A DNA stretch of 10,026 bases. It comes from a virus (Duplodnaviria > Heunggongvirae > Uroviricota > Caudoviricetes). The stretch is taken from the IMG/VR virus record IMGVR_UViG_2706794694_000003; one strand, given 5' to 3'. How positions within the stretch are numbered: position 1 is the first letter of the stretch; each line of letters opens with the position of its first letter. The notes beneath the pieces were generated by a model, which was not told the DNA's origin, did no database searches, and saw only the letters and a list, made by a program, of their open reading frames with translations. Of the stretch, positions 1-9,833 are shown in pieces. Made by a program: the position numbers and the translations under genes.

Positions 1-54
1 GTTACGCAGAGAATCGTAACGGGATACCAGATCAAGAGCCTGTCCAATGTGCAT
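1..54 (-). CDS. insG: IS4-family transposase, N-terminal 18 codons (partial, runs off window)
   Basis: Minus-strand translation from ATG 54-52 gives MHIGQALDLVSRYDSLRN, which I recall as the start of IS4 InsG. Not in the ORF track because it is truncated by the window edge. Confidence 0.55.
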   Translation of the reverse strand, partial: MHIGQALDLVSRYDSLRN

Positions 55-138
55 AAAAAAATCCGGAAACAAGTGAGCGTTTCCGGATTCTTACACAGCC
101 ACTGGATCGGTCAACTGATCCTTAACTGATCGGCATTA
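1..138 (-). mobile_element. IS4-like insertion sequence, left end (partial; continues beyond window start)
   Basis: Read on the minus strand from 138: TAATGCCGATCAGTTAAG..., then an 84-nt leader containing a 10-bp hairpin (61-70 pairs with 79-88) followed by a T7 run, then the transposase ATG at 54-52. Identification rests on my recollection of the IS4 transposase N-terminus and terminal repeat, not on a search. Confidence 0.6.
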
Positions 139-1278
139 CACCACCGGGACGCGGATTCATATCTTCCAGGTCGCGGCAGTCATTGGAAGAGTAAATTCCC
201 CAGTTGATCCCGGTGGCGTAGGCTTCAAAACGGGACTTCATATCCCCGCGCAGTAACGCCCCGGCGTTAAATTTGGCGTAATAAACGCCCTGCTTACTTT
301 TTCGTACCAGTCCGGTGTTGATCCGCTGTTCGATGCGGGTCAGATACGGCACCAGTGAATAGTTGATAAATCCCAGCCCCAGCTCTTCGATATTGTTGAA
401 GGTGGCGCGATCGGTGTTCTGCACCATGTGCAACGGCACCCGGAACAGACGACAGATTTCTTCCAGCTGAAACTTGCGGGTTTCCAGGAACTGACTGTCC
501 TCGGCGTTCAGCGCCATCGACTTCCAGTCCAGCCCCATTTCCAGAATCATCGGGCGGTGAGCATTGCCAAGCCCCGTGTGACACTCCTCAAAATCTTTCT
601 TCAGACGCTCGTAAGCATCCGGCGTGAGCTTTTGTTCCGTACGCAACACACCGGATGTCACCGCACCATTACTAAACAACCTGGCACCGTGCTCCTCGGT
701 TGCCGCTGCCAGTGAAATGGCCTCACGCGCATACGCAATGGGATTCAGCCCGACAAGTCCATCCAGCGTCAGGGTGCGCACATGCCAGATTTCATTCTGG
801 GTCAACACATCCACGGAACCATCCGGAAACGTCACCTGATAAACCGGCTGCCACTGGCTGTTCAGCTTCGGTTCCACACAGCCCGGATCTATCGGAAGAA
901 GCTCCACCACTTCTCCCAGTGCCTTTACCTTGTAGGCGTAAAAATTCCCCCGTAGACACAGGCAGACAATAACCAGCTCCCAGAATTCCTGCGGTGTCAT
1001 GTAGCCATTAGGTTTTGCCGAAACCAACTTATGCAGTCGTTCATCCACCGCCCGTGTTTTCAGGGTACCGCTGATTTTGTAGAGACTGCAGGGCAGCATA
1101 CCAACAGACTCTGCCAGCACCCTGACGCAAGAATAGACCGCCGTCAGGCGCATGGCCCGCTGGCTACTGATCCGCTTTCCGGTATAGGTGTCGTATGACA
1201 GCCCGATAGCATCAGCAGTTCTGCTGGCGTGGTCACCGGCACATCGCTTTTTCGTTGAAATAATCCCGAAAAGAACAC
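122..1278 (-). CDS. Phage portal protein, HK97 family; probably disrupted (start unresolved, 3' end inside the IS4 terminus)
   Basis: Track ORF 122..1369 translates to a portal-like protein (AMRLTAVYSCVRVLAES motif and a long conserved body). The first 30 track codons begin at TTG, are Cys/Arg/Trp-rich and overlap the 60-aa ORF in another frame, so they are unlikely to be real. The only strong RBS (GGAGGT 1290-1285) precedes GTG 1278 in a different frame. Stop TAA 122-124 lies inside the putative IS4 terminal repeat. Confidence 0.6.
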
Positions 1279-1460
1279 TATTTACCTCCGCCGACAGACT
1301 GCCGTGTACGGTCGAGATATCGCGCCACCAGCCACGACCAGAACAGGCACAGCGCCCCGGCAACAACAAAACCCGCCGGGGGATAAATCAGCCAGGCACC
1401 ATACGCCAGCAAAAGCGCACCCAGCACGCCCACCAGAGGCGCGAGAATCAGCATGATCAT
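1278..1460 (-). CDS. Hypothetical small membrane protein (60 aa, two predicted transmembrane helices)
   Basis: ATG at 1460 is preceded by GAGGTAA with good spacing and starts 12 nt after the terminase large-subunit stop. Codon usage is E. coli-like (CTG/GCG-rich). Translation [60 protein letters not shown] has two hydrophobic segments and a charged tail. No family recognised. Confidence 0.45.
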
Positions 1461-1471
1461 AATTACCTCAG

Positions 1472-3205
1472 TTAAAGCGAGCGGATCCCGTAGGACTCAA
1501 TGTGGTCAGACAGCGTGTCTTCTTTCTCGTACAGCATGGCTCTGCCAACCGCCATAATCAGCGCAACTGCACCATCGATTTTGTTTTCCGCCTGCTCTTT
1601 GACGGGTTTCACCACATCATCGTTACCCGGCATGTTTTTGCCGACCACGTTGCCGATACACCAGGTCATGATGGGATTGCCGTCATGATGAAAACGTCCC
1701 GATTCAATCGCTGCTTCCAGCTCTTTCATCGGATCGGACATATTGGTGAAGTTCTGGACGATAGTGACGGGATTCAGGTCTTCATCAGCAAGGTCATGTG
1801 ACAACCCGGTCGCCCCGAAGGGGTCGATGGGTGACTCACTGACCGGGCTGATTTTGTTCGCCGCTTTGGCCTCCTCGAGGATGTAGCGATAATCCACCTC
1901 CGCACCATCGGTAACGGTCAGAACGCCCATTTCCACCCATTTCTGAAAGCGTTCGGCTGTCCGTCGATCTTCATTTTTCTCGACGCTGTACACCGTGTCA
2001 TACGGTACCCAGAAACGCGGGGCCACACTGTAGTAATGCGTTTTACCGTCAATCTCGCGGGTATAAAGTCGCGCCATGCTGTTCATATCCAGCTTACGCG
2101 CCAGGTCAAAGGCCAGAATGCACGGCTGCCCCTCGAACTGCTCAAGGGTCAGTGATTTATCCTCGCAGCTCTGCCAGCTCACCAAGTTGAAATACGCCGA
2201 ACGCGCCGACACCCAGATATTGAGGTGTTTTGTTTTAAAGACGTTTGCCAGACGGGCGTTATTTTTCGCACGCTGCTGCTGACTTAACAAAAATTCGCGA
2301 TAAACCGACACGCCAATATTTGGATTGGCTTTTTCCAGCACCTGCGGGCCGGTCCAGTCGTCACCTTCATCAACGGTATAGATGATCCCGAACAGTTCAT
2401 CGTTAGGCACCGAGCCGTTGAGCATCTCGATGACTTCCCGCCGCTTGTCGTAGCACGGCCCCTCAATGTTGTACCCGGCGGTGGTGATGGCCCACATCAG
2501 TGGCTGACGTCGCGCCCCCATCCCGGTAAGCATTGTGGTATAAAGCGCATCGGTGGCATGCTCGTGATATTCATCAACCACGGCACAGTGGGGTGATGAA
2601 CCATCACCTGGGTTGCCGATCAGCGGTTCAAACCGCGCGCCATCCTCCGGACGGTTCATGTTTGAGGCGTTAACCTCAATCCCGAACGCTTCCGTCAGCA
2701 TGGGTGTGCGTTTACACATCAGTCGCGCCGGGCGAAAGACTTCCCACGCCTGTTTCTCTGTCGTGGCACCGGAATACACTTCCGCGCCAAACTCGTTATC
2801 ACAGGCAAAACAATACAGGGCAACACCGGCAGAGATTGCTGATTTGCCGTTCTTACGGGGGATTTCGGTGTACACCTCCCGGAAGCGGCGCAACCGGGTG
2901 CCTTTATTGACCCAGCCAAACGCACAGCAGATCACAAATAGCTGCCACGGCTCCAGCGTGATGGGCATCCGTTTGAATGCCCACTCCCCCTTGGTGTGCG
3001 GCAACAGCTGAATAAATTTCGCGGCCCGTTCAGCCAGGTCCTTGTCGAAGCGGTAACGAAACGACTTACTTTTTTCCGCCATCAGGTCATCAAGATGGCG
3101 CTGGCAGGCCTGAATCACAAACTGGCAGGCAACAATCTTTCCGCGCACGACATCCCGGGCATACTGATTTGCAGCATTTACGTTGGGGTAAGATTTCCGG
3201 CTCAT
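1472..3205 (-). CDS. Phage terminase large subunit
   Basis: 577-aa ORF with ATG start whose ATGA overlaps the stop of the upstream small-subunit gene. Walker A-like RKNGKS motif and typical ATPase/nuclease-length architecture. It follows the small subunit and precedes the portal. Confidence 0.9.
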
Positions 3206-3696
3206 GATTCGATAATTTTCAGAAACGGGTTAGTGGCTTTCTTCTGCCCCGCCAGGCCAATCAGACGCTGGCGGCTGCTGGGGTCGAGTCCGAGCATTGC
3301 CCCCGTGCTGCTCATCTCGGACTCCTGTTCTTTTTTGGCGGTCAGCTCCGGATTTTTGACCCTGCCGCCCATTGCACCGGTGATGGTGTTGCCCTGTATG
3401 GCAATATTTTTCACGGCACGTCGCCAGAACTCATAGGCCACGCACCACCGCTCAAGTACCGCCAGGTCAGTCACGCACAGCAGGCCCTGACCGCAGAGTT
3501 CTTTGGTTGTCAGTTGCCACATGATCGTGGCGAGAGGGAGATCTTCTTCAGCGAACCACTCTGGTGGCTCAACACCTTTGATGGGCGTAAAAACAGGTTC
3601 ATCTTTGTTCAGGGCTCGCTTGCCGGGGTTTCCGGCCAGCGCCTTGCGCGCCGTTGGCTTGGGGCGACGCCCGGAACGCCCCGCCGTTCCAGCCAT
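3202..3696 (-). CDS. Phage terminase small subunit (P27-like family)
   Basis: Chosen start is ATG 3696-3694 ([18 protein letters not shown]...), preceded by AGGAG at about 8 nt. The track start at 3705 is GTG and adds 3 codons. The basic N-terminus is typical of small terminase subunits. Stop overlaps the large-subunit ATG. Confidence 0.8.
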
Positions 3697-3746
3697 ATGC
3701 GGCACTCCTGGTTAAATTTCATTTTTCGCGGGTATAAAAAAACGAT

Positions 3747-4210: not shown

Positions 4211-4465
4211 CTACTTAATGCACTGAGTGCGGATATACTCCTGTGCCCCTTCCAGTTGCATCTGCATCGTCATCAGCCGCTCTCTGAGGGTGAAATAATC
4301 CCGTTCAGCGGTGTCTGCCAGTCGGGGGCTGGTTGCATTATCCACGCCGGAGGCGGTGGTGGCTTCACGCACTGACTGACAGACTGCTTTGATGTGCAAC
4401 CGACGACGACCAGCGGCAACATCAGCGCGCAGAGTTTCATTTTCAGCTTTCGCATCAGCTAACTC
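4211..4465 (-). CDS. Rz: Rz-like i-spanin, C-terminal part (5' end lost in the N gap)
   Basis: The frame is open from the gap edge to TAG at 4211-4213. Translation ...ENETLRADVAAGRRRLHIKAVCQSVREATTASGVDNATSPRLADTAERDYFTLRERLMTMQMQLEGAQEYIRTQCIK closely matches the lambda Rz C-terminus as I recall it. Confidence 0.8.
   Translation of the reverse strand, partial: ELADAKAENETLRADVAAGRRRLHIKAVCQSVREATTASGVDNATSPRLADTAERDYFTLRERLMTMQMQLEGAQEYIRTQCIK
4273..4455 (-). CDS. Rz1: Rz1-like o-spanin lipoprotein, embedded in Rz in another frame
   Basis: ATG at 4455; MRKLKMKLCALMLPLVVVGCTSKQ... has a signal peptide with a lipobox Cys and a proline-rich mature region. Entirely nested within the Rz reading frame, the classic Rz/Rz1 arrangement. 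Confidence 0.75.
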   Translation of the reverse strand: MRKLKMKLCALMLPLVVVGCTSKQSVSQCVKPPPPPAWIMQPAPDWQTPLNGIISPSESG

Positions 4466-4715
4466 NNNNNNNNNNNNNNNNNNNNNNNNNNNNNNNNNNN
4501 NNNNNNNNNNNNNNNNNNNNNNNNNNNNNNNNNNNNNNNNNNNNNNNNNNNNNNNNNNNNNNNNNNNNNNNNNNNNNNNNNNNNNNNNNNNNNNNNNNNN
4601 NNNNNNNNNNNNNNNNNNNNNNNNNNNNNNNNNNNNNNNNNNNNNNNNNNNNNNNNNNNNNNNNNNNNNNNNNNNNNNNNNNNNNNNNNNNNNNNNNNNN
4701 NNNNNNNNNNNNNNN
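4466..4715. other. Assembly gap (250 N)
   Basis: Uninterrupted run of N from 4466 to 4715. Confidence 0.95.
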
Positions 4716-5001
4716 CCGGTATATCGACTTTGATGTACGGGTTAATTTGTCTGGCGACAGTGGCAAGGTCTTTATTCAGGAGGGCTTTGCATTCTGCTTC
4801 GGTATACGTTTTACCGAGCATGATGTCTTTTCCGGTGTGTCCGTGACATACAGTCCATACACCAATGATATCTTTGTATGGTATGTAGCTGACACCTTCC
4901 AGACCATCGTTACCACCTGGGCCAGTGATTAACACAGATGCTATAGCAACAGCCCCACCACCAATAGCAGCTGCAACAGCCTTGCGTAATGATGGCGACA
5001 T
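4716..5001 (-). CDS. R: SAR-type endolysin (phage lysozyme), N-terminal 95 codons; 3' end lost in the gap
   Basis: ATG 5001-4999 with GAGGTG RBS. The Gly/Ala-rich N-terminal segment ([27 protein letters not shown]) is a signal-anchor-release domain, followed by lysozyme-like sequence ([22 protein letters not shown]...). Resembles the phage 21 endolysin as I recall it. Confidence 0.85.
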
Positions 5002-5216
5002 TATTCACCTCTCGCAGCCTTACGCTTGTCTTCTCTTATTTTGAAATACAGATTTGTCAGATAAGTCAGAAGCCCCAGAAGCAGACTTCCCAGCACACCA
5101 ATCGCAGCCCACTGTGATGGACTGACCTGATCCAACCACTGCAAAAACCAGTAGCCGGCACTGCCGGCGGAGGTGCCGTAGGCAATGCCTGTTGATATTT
5201 TTTCCATCTGATACAT
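5001..5216 (-). CDS. S: Class II holin (phage 21 S-like pinholin) with dual-start motif
   Basis: 71 aa, [71 protein letters not shown], with two transmembrane segments and a charged C-terminus. Met1 and Met4 give the antiholin/holin dual start. Stop TAA shares a base with the endolysin ATG. Confidence 0.85.
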
Positions 5217-5246
5217 ATCCCGCCCCCCGACAGACCTGTGCTATCG

Positions 5247-5283
5247 GAAAGAAAAAAGGCCATCAGCAAAACTCTGATGGCCT
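5247..5283 (-). terminator. Intrinsic terminator-like hairpin upstream of the holin
   Basis: On the minus strand: GGCCATCAG-agttttg-CTGATGGCC (9-bp stem) followed by TTTTTTCTTT. Confidence 0.5.
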
Positions 5284-5896
5284 GAATCACCTTTACCAAT
5301 ATTGTATGAAAAAACACGCACGACTAATTGACAATAATTTTCATTTCCATTAAAAAAGATCGCGTAGCATTCTTAATTCATGAGGAACTTTACCCGCCAG
5401 CAATCTGAGTAGCGAAAGCTGTTCATCCCCAATGTTTTTGCTGGCGGGTCCTTTTTTCTACGGTCCTCCTCCCCGGAGGGGGGCATTTCATTATTTTTCT
5501 AATCGTTACTGGTGAGAAGGCGGAAGAAAAAGCCAGTTCTTCGCCCCTAAATAACAGCATGATTCCAGTCCATGCAAAATCTGATTTCCAGCTCACACAT
5601 ACCGAGCGCTGTACAAAAAACCGCCAGCCAAGGCAGTTAAGAGTGTGTTCCCGGGGTTTGCTTAGAATATTTTGTAAGTTGTCCGAAGAGATATTTACAA
5701 CACCAGAATGATGAATCATCAGTCCCCTGCCAGAGGTTCACTACGTAACCTGACCGACAATGCACCATTCTGGTGCTGAAAAAAGAGCACTGGAACTGCA
5801 ACAAAACAACATCACAGAACAGGAGATGGTAAGGAGTCAGACATTCCCACACAATATTGTGTCAGTGCAAATAACAACCTTCGTCTCAAATCTCGC

Positions 5897-5971
<75 letters not shown>

Positions 5972-5974
5972 ATA

Positions 5975-6050
<76 letters not shown>

Positions 6051-6052
6051 GC

Positions 6053-6129
6053 TGGCCCACCACCGAGGACTCGAACCTCGCACCGTCAACTTAGAAGGTT
6101 GATGCTCTATCCGGATGAGCTAGTGGTGG
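6053..6129 (-). tRNA. tRNA-Arg (anticodon UCU), unusual C1:G72 acceptor start
   Basis: Reverse complement CCACCACTAGCTCATCCGGATAGAGCATCAACCTTCTAAGTTGACGGTGCGAGGTTCGAGTCCTCGGTGGTGGGCCA. Cloverleaf folds with a perfect 7-bp acceptor stem, anticodon loop CTTCTAA, encoded CCA. Confidence 0.75.
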
Positions 6130-6130
6130 T

Positions 6131-6207
6131 TGGTGGCCCTTGCTGGACTTGAACCAGCGACCTGGCGATTATGAGTCGCTCGCTCTGACCAACTGAGCTA
6201 AAGGGCC
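6131..6207 (-). tRNA. tRNA with CAU anticodon, most like tRNA-Ile2 (lysidine type, reads AUA); tRNA-Met cannot be excluded from sequence alone
   Basis: Reverse complement GGCCCTTTAGCTCAGTTGGTCAGAGCGAGCGACTCATAATCGCCAGGTCGCTGGTTCAAGTCCAGCAAGGGCCACCA. Closely resembles host ileX-type tRNA as I recall it. Anticodon loop CTCATAA. Confidence 0.8.
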
Positions 6208-6960: not shown

Positions 6961-7166
6961 AGACATGTCCTTTCGAATATTTTGATTTACCCCTTTTGAG
7001 AGGGTGACCGGGCGCTCAAAACCGTCGAAAGTCGGCGGGCGTATTTCCATTGCTGGTATTGTATTAGCCGCACACCCGGTCATAAACCAAGAATTCTGGA
7101 CACAAAAAAACCACATGGCTATCGGGTGTGGATACCGCTTTCGAGGTGTTTTGAGCACCGCGGGGA

Positions 7167-7195
7167 AATGTAAACTGCAAACCTGAAACTGTCAA
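7167..7195 (-). promoter_or_regulatory. Near-consensus sigma70 promoter facing the ORF6N-domain gene
   Basis: Minus strand TTGACA (7195-7190), 17-nt spacer, TACATT (7172-7167). The roughly 200-nt leader contains a short hairpin plus T7 run (about 7101-7131). Confidence 0.4.
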
Positions 7196-7320
7196 CACCG
7201 TCAGGTTCCAATCATCGGGTGGTGAGACGCACAGGGTTGGAACTACCGGGAAACCGACCGGCGAGCTTTTCAGCTCCCCCATGCGCCCCACCATAATTCA
7301 GATGTGCGCGTGCATACGAC

Positions 7321-7345
7321 AATAAAAAACACGCTCGCGGCGTGT
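7321..7345 (-). terminator. tR'-like intrinsic terminator ending a short late leader transcript
   Basis: Minus strand ACACGC-cgcga-GCGTGT followed by TTTTTTATT, about 55-80 nt downstream of the predicted pR' start. Confidence 0.55.
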
Positions 7346-7406
7346 GTCTGTCGCGGTCTCTATCCGGGGTTCCAATCCCGACGCCAGATTTTGCTGGCGC
7401 GTGAGG

Positions 7407-7436
7407 AATATAGCCCCGGACAATGTGTCTGGTCAA
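7407..7436 (-). promoter_or_regulatory. pR'-like late promoter immediately downstream of Q
   Basis: Minus strand TTGACC (7436-7431), 18-nt spacer, TATATT (7412-7407), 5 bp past the Q stop codon. The predicted 5' leader forms a CGCCAG-caaaat-CTGGCG hairpin (7382-7399). Confidence 0.5.
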
Positions 7437-7440
7437 GCAC

Positions 7441-7827
7441 CTACATAATTCGTTCTACGTATCTGTCCATCTCCAGCCGGATATCAAGCATCATCAACAT
7501 GCCATCAATAACCCCTTCCGCTTTCTGCAGGCGCTTGCCAATACAGGTATCCGAACACCCATGTTTCCGTGCCAGACTCATAAAAGTCATTCCACCTACG
7601 TAATAATCCACCAGCAAATCGTGCAAATCCTGATTTTTCTTGTTCAACCGGGCCATACAGCCACAAATTATCATTGCATCATCATCAGAACACTGAGGGC
7701 GTGATTTCACTTTCGACGGAATTAACCCTTTAAAACCAGCAGCGATCGACGCCCAGGATACATCTTCATGAGTGTTTGCAGCCCAAGCCCCCCACCGTTC
7801 CATAACCTGCTGAATATCACGCGCCAT
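7441..7827 (-). CDS. Late-gene antitermination protein Q (Stx-phage Q933-like type)
   Basis: Chosen start ATG 7827 ([25 protein letters not shown]...) with AGGTGA RBS; the track's upstream ATG at 7848 adds 7 codons. Cys clusters (CGCMARL, HGCSDTC) suggest zinc binding. Resembles the Q of Stx2 phages as I recall it. Overlaps the rusA stop. Confidence 0.8.
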
Positions 7828-8188
7828 CGTTATCACCTGTGATTTCATAAATCTTCACGCCCAGTCGCCCACCAGGAACGAGCTGACCGCGCACAATATT
7901 GATTTCATCAAACTGCTCGTCGTCTATGAGTAGTCCGGCATGCGTCAGCGCATCCAGTGGTGCTTTCAGGATATTGTCCAGGTCACGACGGCGCTTATCC
8001 GGTGGCTCTGCAATAATCTTTATCGCCAGCCTTCCGGACAGGTTTAATTTCAGCCGCTGCTGGCGAACAATTAGCGTCACATCACGGCGATAACGCTCAC
8101 CAACTTTTGATACAAAATATGTGCTGCCACGACGTCGCCAGTAAGTATTCACCGTCGGCGGATAAGGTAAAATAAACTCATGGCGCAT
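7817..8188 (-). CDS. rusA: RusA-family Holliday junction resolvase
   Basis: 123 aa; [15 protein letters not shown]... and [29 protein letters not shown] match the RusA catalytic region (compare DRRRRDLDNLQKAAFDAL in E. coli RusA as I recall it). ATG start, in the nin-region position before Q. Confidence 0.85.
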
Positions 8189-8430
8189 CAGCGCAGCACC
8201 TCCTGCACCATTTTTTCAAACTTTCCAACTTTGGTTTCCAGCTCTGCCACACAATCAACGAGCTCATCCACCGCTTTTTGTGCGCGATGTTTCGCCTGCA
8301 TCAGTTCCCTGAGCGCTGGCACCATATCCCGACGAATGGCATCTTTTGTTACACCTGTTTTTTCCAGTTGTTCCGCCTGTCGCAACATTTCCTGCGCGTG
8401 TTTACGCAATTGTTCAGAGGTAAAAGTCAT
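8188..8430 (-). CDS. Hypothetical protein (80 aa, predicted helical/coiled-coil) in the nin-region
   Basis: Start taken as ATG 8430 (MTFTSEQLRKHAQEMLRQAEQLEK...); the track start at 8445 is TTG. No clear RBS; begins 11 nt after the helicase stop. Its stop shares a base with the rusA ATG (TGATG). Confidence 0.5.
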   Translation of the reverse strand: MTFTSEQLRKHAQEMLRQAEQLEKTGVTKDAIRRDMVPALRELMQAKHRAQKAVDELVDCVAELETKVGKFEKMVQEVLR

Positions 8431-8441
8431 TGTCTGGTTGT

Positions 8442-9833
8442 TCAAAAGAAACGCTCCATCTTACTGCTGTCGGTACGTGTATTGCTGTATCTGCGCGGCT
8501 GGGGCTGCCGCATTGGGGTGGAAAGAACCTGTGCGCTTTCCTGGTCCACAGGCAGAAAATGTCCGTTATAAAAACGCCGGTAAATCGTCCCCAGAGAACC
8601 GTTACGTTGTTTCGTGATATTAATTTCTGCTATGCCTGTAGCCTGTGTATCCGGGTTGTACACTTCATCCCTGTAAAGCATCAGAATGATGTCTGCATCC
8701 GCCTCTATTTCTCCGGAATTTTTCAGGTCTGAGTTCATGGGACGTTTATTGGGTCTGGACTCCACACCGCGGGAGAGCTGGCTCAGCGCAATCAACGGAA
8801 AACCACCGGATTTTGCCAGGCCTTTAAGCCCCTTTGAGATTTCACCCACGGCAAGGTCATGACGCCCCGTGGTTCGGGTTTTTATCAGCCCGAGATAATC
8901 AACCACCACCAGCGCCGTTTCCGGATGTTTAATCAGATGGTGTTTCGTTGTTGCGCATATCTCATCAATGGTCAGGTTCGCCTGGTCCACCATCCAGATA
9001 TTGCGCCCGGTCATCCGCCCCACCCCTTGTGAGAAACGCGCCCAGTCTTCATCTTCAAAGTGAGCCACAGATTTCAGGCGTGATACTGGCATCCCTCCAG
9101 CCGCAGACACCATACGTTCACCAATCTGGATGTTCGCCATCTCCATGGTGAACAGAAGCACACCATGCCCCTGCTCAGTCACCTTGTCGATGATGTCCAG
9201 CGCAAGTTCGGTTTTCCCCATCGAAGGACGGGCGGCAATGAATACCAGGTCTCCGGGCTCCATACCGCCTGTTTTTGCGTCCAGTTCATCAATACCGGTC
9301 ATCAACGTCCTGGATTTCTCCAGCCCCTGATTCCGGCATTCAACACGCTCAACCACTTCCGGAAGCACATCATCAATATGTACCGGCTGAATGACGCCCT
9401 TTCCTGTCGACAGTGTGACCATCATGTTCTGCGCATCCTTCAGGGCATCTTCAGCTGCTTCACAGGTATGCGCATCACGTAATTTCTGCAGCGCCTCATT
9501 CAGTGTTTTTTCTGCATCGCGCAGTGCGGCATTGCGCCGCAACGCTGCAACATAGTGCTCCAGTGAAGACTTCACCCAGGTTTTACGCCCGGTATCAGTA
9601 ATCACCGGGGCAAGTTCCGGCATCTCATTACACAACAGCACGGGGTCAATCACTCCTGAAACACGGGCCTGTCTGCAGATGCCTGTGTAGATATCCCGAT
9701 ACGCTCGTACAGAAAAAATGTCCGCCGGTAGTGTGATCAGAATATCCATCACTTCATGATCTGCCCCACGCAGAAAGAATGCGCCAATGACAGCGCCTTC
9801 CAGGTCATCATTACGCCAGACTGGTGTTGTCAT
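8442..9833 (-). CDS. Replicative DNA helicase, DnaB family (phage-encoded)
   Basis: Chosen start ATG 9833 with GAGGTG RBS (MTTPVWRNDDLEGAVIGAFFL...), giving 463 aa. Walker A ARPSMGKTELAL and a DnaB-like C-terminal domain. The track's 47 extra N-terminal codons begin at GTG and look non-coding. Confidence 0.85.
   Translation of the reverse strand: MTTPVWRNDDLEGAVIGAFFLRGADHEVMDILITLPADIFSVRAYRDIYTGICRQARVSGVIDPVLLCNEMPELAPVITDTGRKTWVKSSLEHYVAALRRNAALRDAEKTLNEALQKLRDAHTCEAAEDALKDAQNMMVTLSTGKGVIQPVHIDDVLPEVVERVECRNQGLEKSRTLMTGIDELDAKTGGMEPGDLVFIAARPSMGKTELALDIIDKVTEQGHGVLLFTMEMANIQIGERMVSAAGGMPVSRLKSVAHFEDEDWARFSQGVGRMTGRNIWMVDQANLTIDEICATTKHHLIKHPETALVVVDYLGLIKTRTTGRHDLAVGEISKGLKGLAKSGGFPLIALSQLSRGVESRPNKRPMNSDLKNSGEIEADADIILMLYRDEVYNPDTQATGIAEINITKQRNGSLGTIYRRFYNGHFLPVDQESAQVLSTPMRQPQPRRYSNTRTDSSKMERFF

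Follow-up and report, generated by a model that had tools for sequence, protein, structure and literature searches.

Where does the portal gene of this prophage begin, and can the gene still encode a portal protein? Here we analyse a stretch of 10,026 nucleotides (nt) from the IMG/VR record IMGVR_UViG_2706794694_000003, taken as a whole and hereafter referred to as the window. The portal gene occupies positions 1278-139, next to the start of an insertion sequence (IS; 138-1), and all feature coordinates refer to the minus strand of the window. The question arises from the layout of the 5' end of the gene, where the best ribosome-binding site and the start codon that follows it lie in one reading frame and the conserved body of the portal in another. 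This layout is a deterministic feature of the sequence, for which chance is not relevant. The explanation that fits best, and which taken as a whole is very probably correct, is that the window represents the late region of a cryptic lambdoid prophage of Shigella sonnei with head genes of the HK97 type, and that two independent and heritable lesions make its portal gene a pseudogene: a one-base deletion in codon 22 and an IS4 insertion after codon 380. The one-base deletion is a real one, and every copy of the prophage that we fetched has it. The two lesions make up an ordinary pseudogene of a well-known kind in a cryptic prophage.

The portal start and the deletion in codon 22

The features on which the reading of the 5' end depends are the following.

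1278..1460, minus strand: ymfR-like open reading frame (ORF) of 60 amino acids, encoding a small hydrophobic protein, with its TAG stop at 1280-1278
1284..1289, minus strand: Shine-Dalgarno sequence GGAGGT, 5 bases upstream of GTG 1278 and invariant in the alignment with intact homologues
1216..1278, minus strand: portal codons 1-21 in the native frame, with the start GTG at 1278-1276
1215..1216, minus strand: site of the 1-nt deletion, where one G of CTG-GCT (Leu21-Ala22) is gone and the window reads CTGCT
1144..1215, minus strand: out-of-frame tail of 23 codons (LMLSGCHTTPIPESGSVASGPCA), followed by TGA 1146-1144
1151..1153, minus strand: ATG for native Met43; no conventional start precedes it in the portal frame, and the TGA of the 44-codon ORF lies four bases further on
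139..1213, minus strand: portal codons 23-380, read in the shifted frame (DAIGLSYDTYTGK...NPRPGG); the stretch is open, colinear with intact portals and includes the whole Pfam Phage_portal domain

The GTG at 1278-1276 shares one base with the TAG stop of the 60-amino-acid ORF (1460-1278; TAGTG) and opens a frame of 44 codons that ends at TGA 1146-1144. An earlier reading of the window from its letters alone (the sequence-only reading) had described this second frame, and direct translation agrees with it. It had also placed GGAGGT ahead of the GTG; the motif is present, but at 1289-1284 rather than at 1290-1285, so that the coordinates were off by one. Its claim that the portal frame itself holds no ATG, GTG or TTG between 1278 and ATG 1153 is borne out by a listing of codons: between 1369 and 1153 the only such codons are TTG 1369, TTG 1366 and TTG 1363 (1369-1361), and then ATG 1153.

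The peptide read from the GTG was proposed to be a portal N-terminus, and over its first part it does look like one. Residues 1-21 are identical at 20 of 21 positions to the portals of Escherichia coli A36 and phage SfIV (the GTG start codon being counted as Met), whereas the tail that follows in the same frame, LMLSGCHTTPIPESGSVASGPCA, shows no similarity to portals. When both frames are aligned to intact portals, as had been suggested, homology passes from the GTG frame to the portal frame at residue 22/23, and from Asp23 onward the match lies in the latter. At the DNA level, alignment with three intact E. coli prophage portals leaves a single gap in the window, at CTG-GC (...CCAGCAGAACT-GCTGATGCT...). 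The intact allele GAACTGGCTGATGCT (PAELADAIGL) is found in one IMG/VR contig (L020), in which the G is present and the sequence reads ...TTPAELADAIGLSYDTYTGK.... The locus thus carries, relative to intact orthologues, an indel that is not a multiple of three, with homology resuming in another frame, which is what defines a frameshift pseudogene. The frameshift that had been suspected at roughly 1150-1200 is therefore supported by the alignments, although it lies at 1216, about 16 bases upstream of that range.

A wider search of complete genomes returned the intact form. Of 5426 complete E. coli genomes, 1384 contain a match to a 481-base query around the site, at 80-96% identity. All 40 E. coli matches listed span 482 bases, one more than the window, and they are annotated as terminase large subunit, ymfR or hypothetical protein, and phage portal protein; among the matches listed there are intact relatives only, at no more than 95.9% identity. 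In three E. coli genomes the portal is a coding sequence of 413 amino acids whose first base is the last base of the ymfR stop, just where GTG 1278 lies in the window, and a start codon (GTG or ATG) on the same overlap is also found in phage SfIV and in ymfR-beeE of the K-12 prophage e14. The homologue of the ymfR-like ORF is annotated as ymfR or as a membrane protein in E. coli A36, STEC276, K-12 e14 and phage SfII, and the overlap between ymfR stop and portal start is kept in all four. Intact homologues beginning in the portal frame in this region, which the sequence-only reading had set against its own proposal, were not seen; the homologues start at the equivalent of GTG 1278. The native start at GTG 1278 is coupled to the stop of the ymfR-like gene, and translation that begins there covers 21 native codons and then 23 out-of-frame codons before stopping at TGA 1146-1144.

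With the missing base restored, the protein (hereafter the repaired protein) scores 359.2 bits against Pfam PF04860 (Phage_portal), for which the gathering cut-off is 39.1, and residues 47-373 cover model positions 2-321 of 321. Among solved structures, it matches the portal 8cez_A over residues 27-380 (E = 4.6e-51) and 6te8 ('Phage portal protein, HK97 family'; E = 2.2e-19). Judged by its sequence, the gene is a member of the HK97-type portal family, but a pseudogene.

IS4 and the missing head genes

The second lesion lies at the other end of the gene, and two further features describe it.

1..138, minus strand: left end of IS4, with the terminal inverted repeat from 138 (TAATGCCGATCAGTTAAG), a hairpin at about 88-61 and the transposase ATG at 54-52
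122..138, minus strand: fusion tail VMPIS and TAA 124-122, after Gly380, replacing the native 33 C-terminal residues

Phage portal homology stops at window position 139. IS4 adjoins portal codon 380 there (window 138/139) and the last 33 codons are gone; the last portal base, 139, serves as first base of the Val codon of the fusion tail. We read this as an IS4 insertion after codon 380, between 138 and 139, that took off the last 33 codons. Between its native start and its native stop the gene is thus interrupted twice, by the 1-nt deletion in codon 22 and by its end after codon 380. The window holds the first 138 bases of IS4 only, and the transposase ORF extends beyond it.

For a view of the complete element and of what follows it, we used 26 fetched loci of the same prophage, comprising six IMG/VR contigs and 20 loci from NCBI assemblies (two assemblies twice), of which the aligned parts are 99.3-100% identical to the window. 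In one of these (L013) the element measures 1426 bp (7068-8493), with inverted repeats TGTAATGCCGATCAGTTAAG and CTTAACTGACTGGCATTACA (arms at 7066-7085 and 8476-8495). Its transposase of 442 amino acids carries the domains PF13006 Nterm_IS4 and PF01609 DDE_Tnp_1 (L013, L014, L026 and L030).

IS4 generates target-site duplications of 11-13 bp. In complete genomes the left flank of the element reads GTCCCGGTGGTG and the right flank CAGCCCTTGAGC, and there is no target duplication. In six loci (five complete genomes), neither the 3' end of the portal gene nor protease or capsid genes were found within up to 6 kb past the portal stop. What follows IS4 is instead one of two arrangements. In the first, the element is followed by raiA-pheL-pheA-tyrA-aroF (L013, L014, L026 and L030). 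In the second, the rest of IS4, interrupted by an IS3-family element, leads into bamE-recN-nadK (L010-L012, L016, L021-L025 and L027-L029); this arrangement was confirmed by alignment for L022 only. The two flank arrangements suggest that an IS-mediated inversion has turned the segment between raiA and bamE, which we take to be about 16 kb long in K-12. TerS and TerL (the small and large terminase subunits) and the small ORF stand upstream of the portal as in the homologues, whereas downstream protease and capsid are absent and IS4 and host DNA are found instead. Complete S. sonnei genomes have host DNA, and not protease and capsid, after IS4, which means that the portal gene's 5' part has been cut off from the head module; the split would have come about by an IS4-associated deletion or by rearrangement. 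From sequence we infer that no functional portal is made, and the prophage remnant would be unable to build heads or to form particles.

One IMG/VR contig differs from this picture. L009 (IMGVR_UViG_2663762996_000003, 1-13286) is 99.9% identical to the window from TerL to portal and shares the codon-22 deletion. In it, GTCCCGGTGGTG stands after the right end of IS4; these 12 bases are also found just ahead of IS4 in the window (150-139), so that a 12-bp target repeat is formed. After the repeat come the 3' end of the portal gene, protease, capsid and tail genes (protease and capsid at 4251-6157). The right junction between IS4 and the portal 3' part reads CTGACTGGCATTA / GTCCCGGTGGTGATGTCTATC, and a scan of IMG/VR for a junction of the IS4 right end with the portal 3' part gave L009 as the sole match. 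This locus looks like a simple IS4 insertion that preceded the later rearrangement and may represent an intermediate in the decay, a comparison that is suggestive only. Three odd features of L009 suggest a draft-assembly chimera, namely a read-through copy of the junction, a single N and, inside IS4, an inverted hairpin loop.

Both the insertion and the presumed rearrangement resemble what has been documented for the host. Chromosomes of S. sonnei contain a median of 286 IS insertions each, and pseudogenes are numerous (PMC7373316). In the account of IS-driven inactivation in Shigella by Hawkey et al. (2020; PMC7373316), IS4 is among the expanded IS families of S. sonnei, and the genome decay documented there, through IS insertion, pseudogenes and IS-associated rearrangement, has its likeness in the portal locus. 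That study covers the loss of host genes and left phage regions out of its phylogeny of single-nucleotide variants; we did not find the portal lesion described in it.

The pseudogene weighed against other explanations

Several observations weigh against a dead gene. Outside the two lesions, the portal frame has no interruption between codon 23 and codon 380 and is well conserved there, and the TerS, TerL and HNH genes nearby remain intact ORFs. Comparison of the window with L014, the most divergent locus at 99.3% identity, gave no sequence-level sign of relaxed constraint. The whole Pfam portal domain is kept in an ORF of 343 amino acids from ATG 1153, from which some truncated portal protein may be expressed. 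Finally, L009 raises the point that the rest of the prophage may survive in some strains or elsewhere in the chromosome. Since the remainder of the portal frame and TerS, TerL and HNH are still open, the decay would appear to be recent.

A first alternative is a truncated protein that has been retained. A protein of 343 amino acids (Met43 to Gly380 plus VMPIS) would be made from ATG 1153, possibly by termination-reinitiation, and would have been kept for a function of its own. The position of the ATG, within ten bases of TGA 1146-1144 and with the 44-codon ORF stopping four bases after it, suits such a model. So does the content of the ORF, which contains the entire Phage_portal domain, and so do the intact HNH, TerS and TerL genes upstream and the stretch from TerS to portal, which has zero differences between the window and even L014. 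However, ATG 1153 has no good Shine-Dalgarno sequence in front, and a start there cuts off a conserved N-terminus, as the sequence-only reading had held, residues 1-42 being conserved among homologues. In complete genomes, moreover, there are no capsid or protease genes downstream to serve as partners, and nothing points to a function for the product. S. sonnei is young and clonal, with lineages that diverge by about 0.023% (PMC7373316), which accounts for the identity among loci; this identity is not evidence of selection. We consider a retained truncated protein very unlikely, and give equally little credence to an extension of it in which the 343-amino-acid ORF (1153-122) would form, together with HNH, TerS and TerL, a domesticated packaging or phage-interference module rather than inert debris.

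Less likely still is an intact portal gene whose missing base is an indel introduced by sequencing or draft assembly. The sequence-only reading had left the choice between a pseudogenising lesion and such an indel, and it is the lesion that stands. The record does have the look of a draft, or of a masked sequence, in one place, where the window contains a run of 250 N (4466-4715), and sporadic frame breaks occur in related assemblies: TerS, TerL and the host genes recN and nadK are split in L024, and TerL has 498 amino acids in L028 and L029. The deletion allele, however, is present in 26 of the 26 fetched loci, which come from independent assemblies and different projects. Among these is CP000038.1 (L016), a Sanger-era genome, which is that of S. 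sonnei Ss046 (PMC5447701). The presence of Ss046 among the carriers also assigns the window to S. sonnei or a very close relative. The exact product of 343 amino acids is indexed in 1695 blocks of public assemblies, a number that argues against an assembly indel; the identical TerL protein of the window is indexed in 4305 blocks. The deleted base falls in a run of only two G, not in an error-prone homopolymer, and true assembly indels in the fetched loci are sporadic and private to single assemblies. Because it occurs in every copy fetched and in a short G run, unlike private assembly indels, the deletion is a real lesion. An exact-pattern scan of a species-representative genome collection found no deletion allele, which we believe is due to S. 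sonnei lacking a representative of its own.

Nor would recoding account for the two frames. Programmed -1 ribosomal frameshifting or transcriptional slippage could in principle join the N-terminus to the portal body, given that a -1 shift anywhere in 1278-1144 would restore the frame and that the portal frame is open throughout. Yet there is no in-frame slippery heptamer of the form X_XXY_YYZ between 1278 and 1144, and the longest homopolymer in this interval is A5. Related functional or intact portals are all single uninterrupted ORFs, so the two-frame arrangement is derived and not a conserved recoding site. Programmed frameshifting was rejected on these two grounds, the lack of a slippery heptamer and the absence of the two-frame layout from homologues, and we see next to no chance that recoding operates here; even if it did, the IS4 truncation would remain and no native portal would result.

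Equally negligible is a true start at one of the TTG codons (1369-1361) with the 5' end intact, for which speak an uninterrupted ORF of 415 codons from TTG 1369 to 122 and the call of 414 amino acids in CP000038.1 (L016 5840-7084), which corresponds to TTG 1366 (window 1366-122), and which was rejected because the first ~50 residues so added, rightly described before as Cys/Trp/Arg-rich and unlike protein, have no counterpart in intact portals, share about 90 bases with the ymfR-like gene in a different frame and begin where no homologue begins, while the real portal N-terminus sits in the GTG frame.

Neighbouring genes, relatives and annotation

Upstream of the portal and the ymfR-like gene, the window contains the following features.

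9974-8442, minus strand: DnaB-like helicase
7848-7441, minus strand: antiterminator Q
7158-6397, minus strand: ORF6N protein
6207-5897, minus strand: a tight cluster of four tRNA genes (Met-CAT, Arg-TCT, Thr-TGT and Gly-TCC), located after the Q antiterminator region and before the lysis genes
5216-5001, minus strand: holin
4715-4466: run of exactly 250 N
4168-3818, minus strand: HNH endonuclease, ORF intact
3705-3202, minus strand: small terminase (TerS), ORF intact
1472..3205, minus strand: large terminase (TerL) of 577 amino acids, an intact ORF directly upstream, with the domains TerL_ATPase and TerL_nuclease

The position of TerL next to the portal identifies the packaging module. In lambdoid prophages, tRNA genes often sit between the Q region and the lysis genes, as they do here. 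At the place of the N run (4466-4715), otherwise identical assemblies such as L016 have 418 bases, which cover lysozyme (3' part) and Rz (5' part); listed ORFs that span the run, for example 4459-5001 (180 amino acids), are artefacts of it. All 34 differences between the window and L014/L026 (CP044191.1) fall in the neighbouring Rz/Rz1 region (window 4244-4457), a 3-base indel included. The pattern suggests a small patch of mosaic recombination rather than scattered mutation.

As to the terminase genes, the start of TerS (3202-3705) is ambiguous, the identical sequence being called with 167 amino acids (GTG 3705) or with 164 across records. In L024, L028 and L029, TerS or TerL is split or shortened (for example, TerL of 498 amino acids, or of 194 + 341), and host recN and/or nadK are also split in L024 and L028. 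These breaks are probably long-read assembly indels and not further decay.

The gene order TerS, TerL, small membrane protein, portal is common to the window, the Shigella phages SfIV, SfII and SfI, and Salmonella phage ST64B. From TerS to portal (window 139-3300), nucleotide identity is 93-94.5% to SfIV, SfII and SfI, and 84% to ST64B. The repaired portal is 91% identical to that of SfIV over 380 amino acids with no gaps, and the start position is the same. By sequence identity, then, the portals of Shigella phages SfIV, SfII and SfI are the closest functional relatives. In the phages, however, the portal is a single intact ORF of 413 amino acids followed by the prohead protease and the major capsid gene, whereas the copy in the window is broken at codons 22 and 380. 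Compared with HK97-family portals at large (PF04860; structures 8cez and 8fql), the window version is not translatable as one chain and is without its C-terminal 33 residues.

The closest described parallel is ymfR-beeE of the cryptic K-12 prophage e14, in which a gene of the portal family likewise starts on the last base of the ymfR stop. There, beeE (474 nt) is also a truncated portal remnant in a defective prophage, beside other pseudogenes. The two remnants differ in how they arose and where they lie: in e14 an internal deletion joins the portal to the tail gene jayE, whereas the portal in the window has a frameshift and IS4 instead, and e14 is located at icd, whereas the remnant studied here adjoins raiA or bamE.

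The practical value of these results lies in annotation, since the locus is called in at least three ways in public records: as a protein of 414 amino acids from a spurious TTG (Ss046), as an N-truncated portal of 343 amino acids, or as no gene at all. The second of these calls comes from gene callers that use ATG 1153, which has put the 343-amino-acid product into many assemblies. As a consequence of such inconsistent calling, truncated or chimeric portals are abundant in protein databases, as the 1695 blocks with this product illustrate. Prophage predictors should not score the region as an intact phage. The deletion, being present in every fetched copy, could serve as a marker for the prophage remnant. 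For the biology of S. sonnei the finding is of little importance: it adds one more dead gene in an IS-ridden Shigella cryptic prophage.

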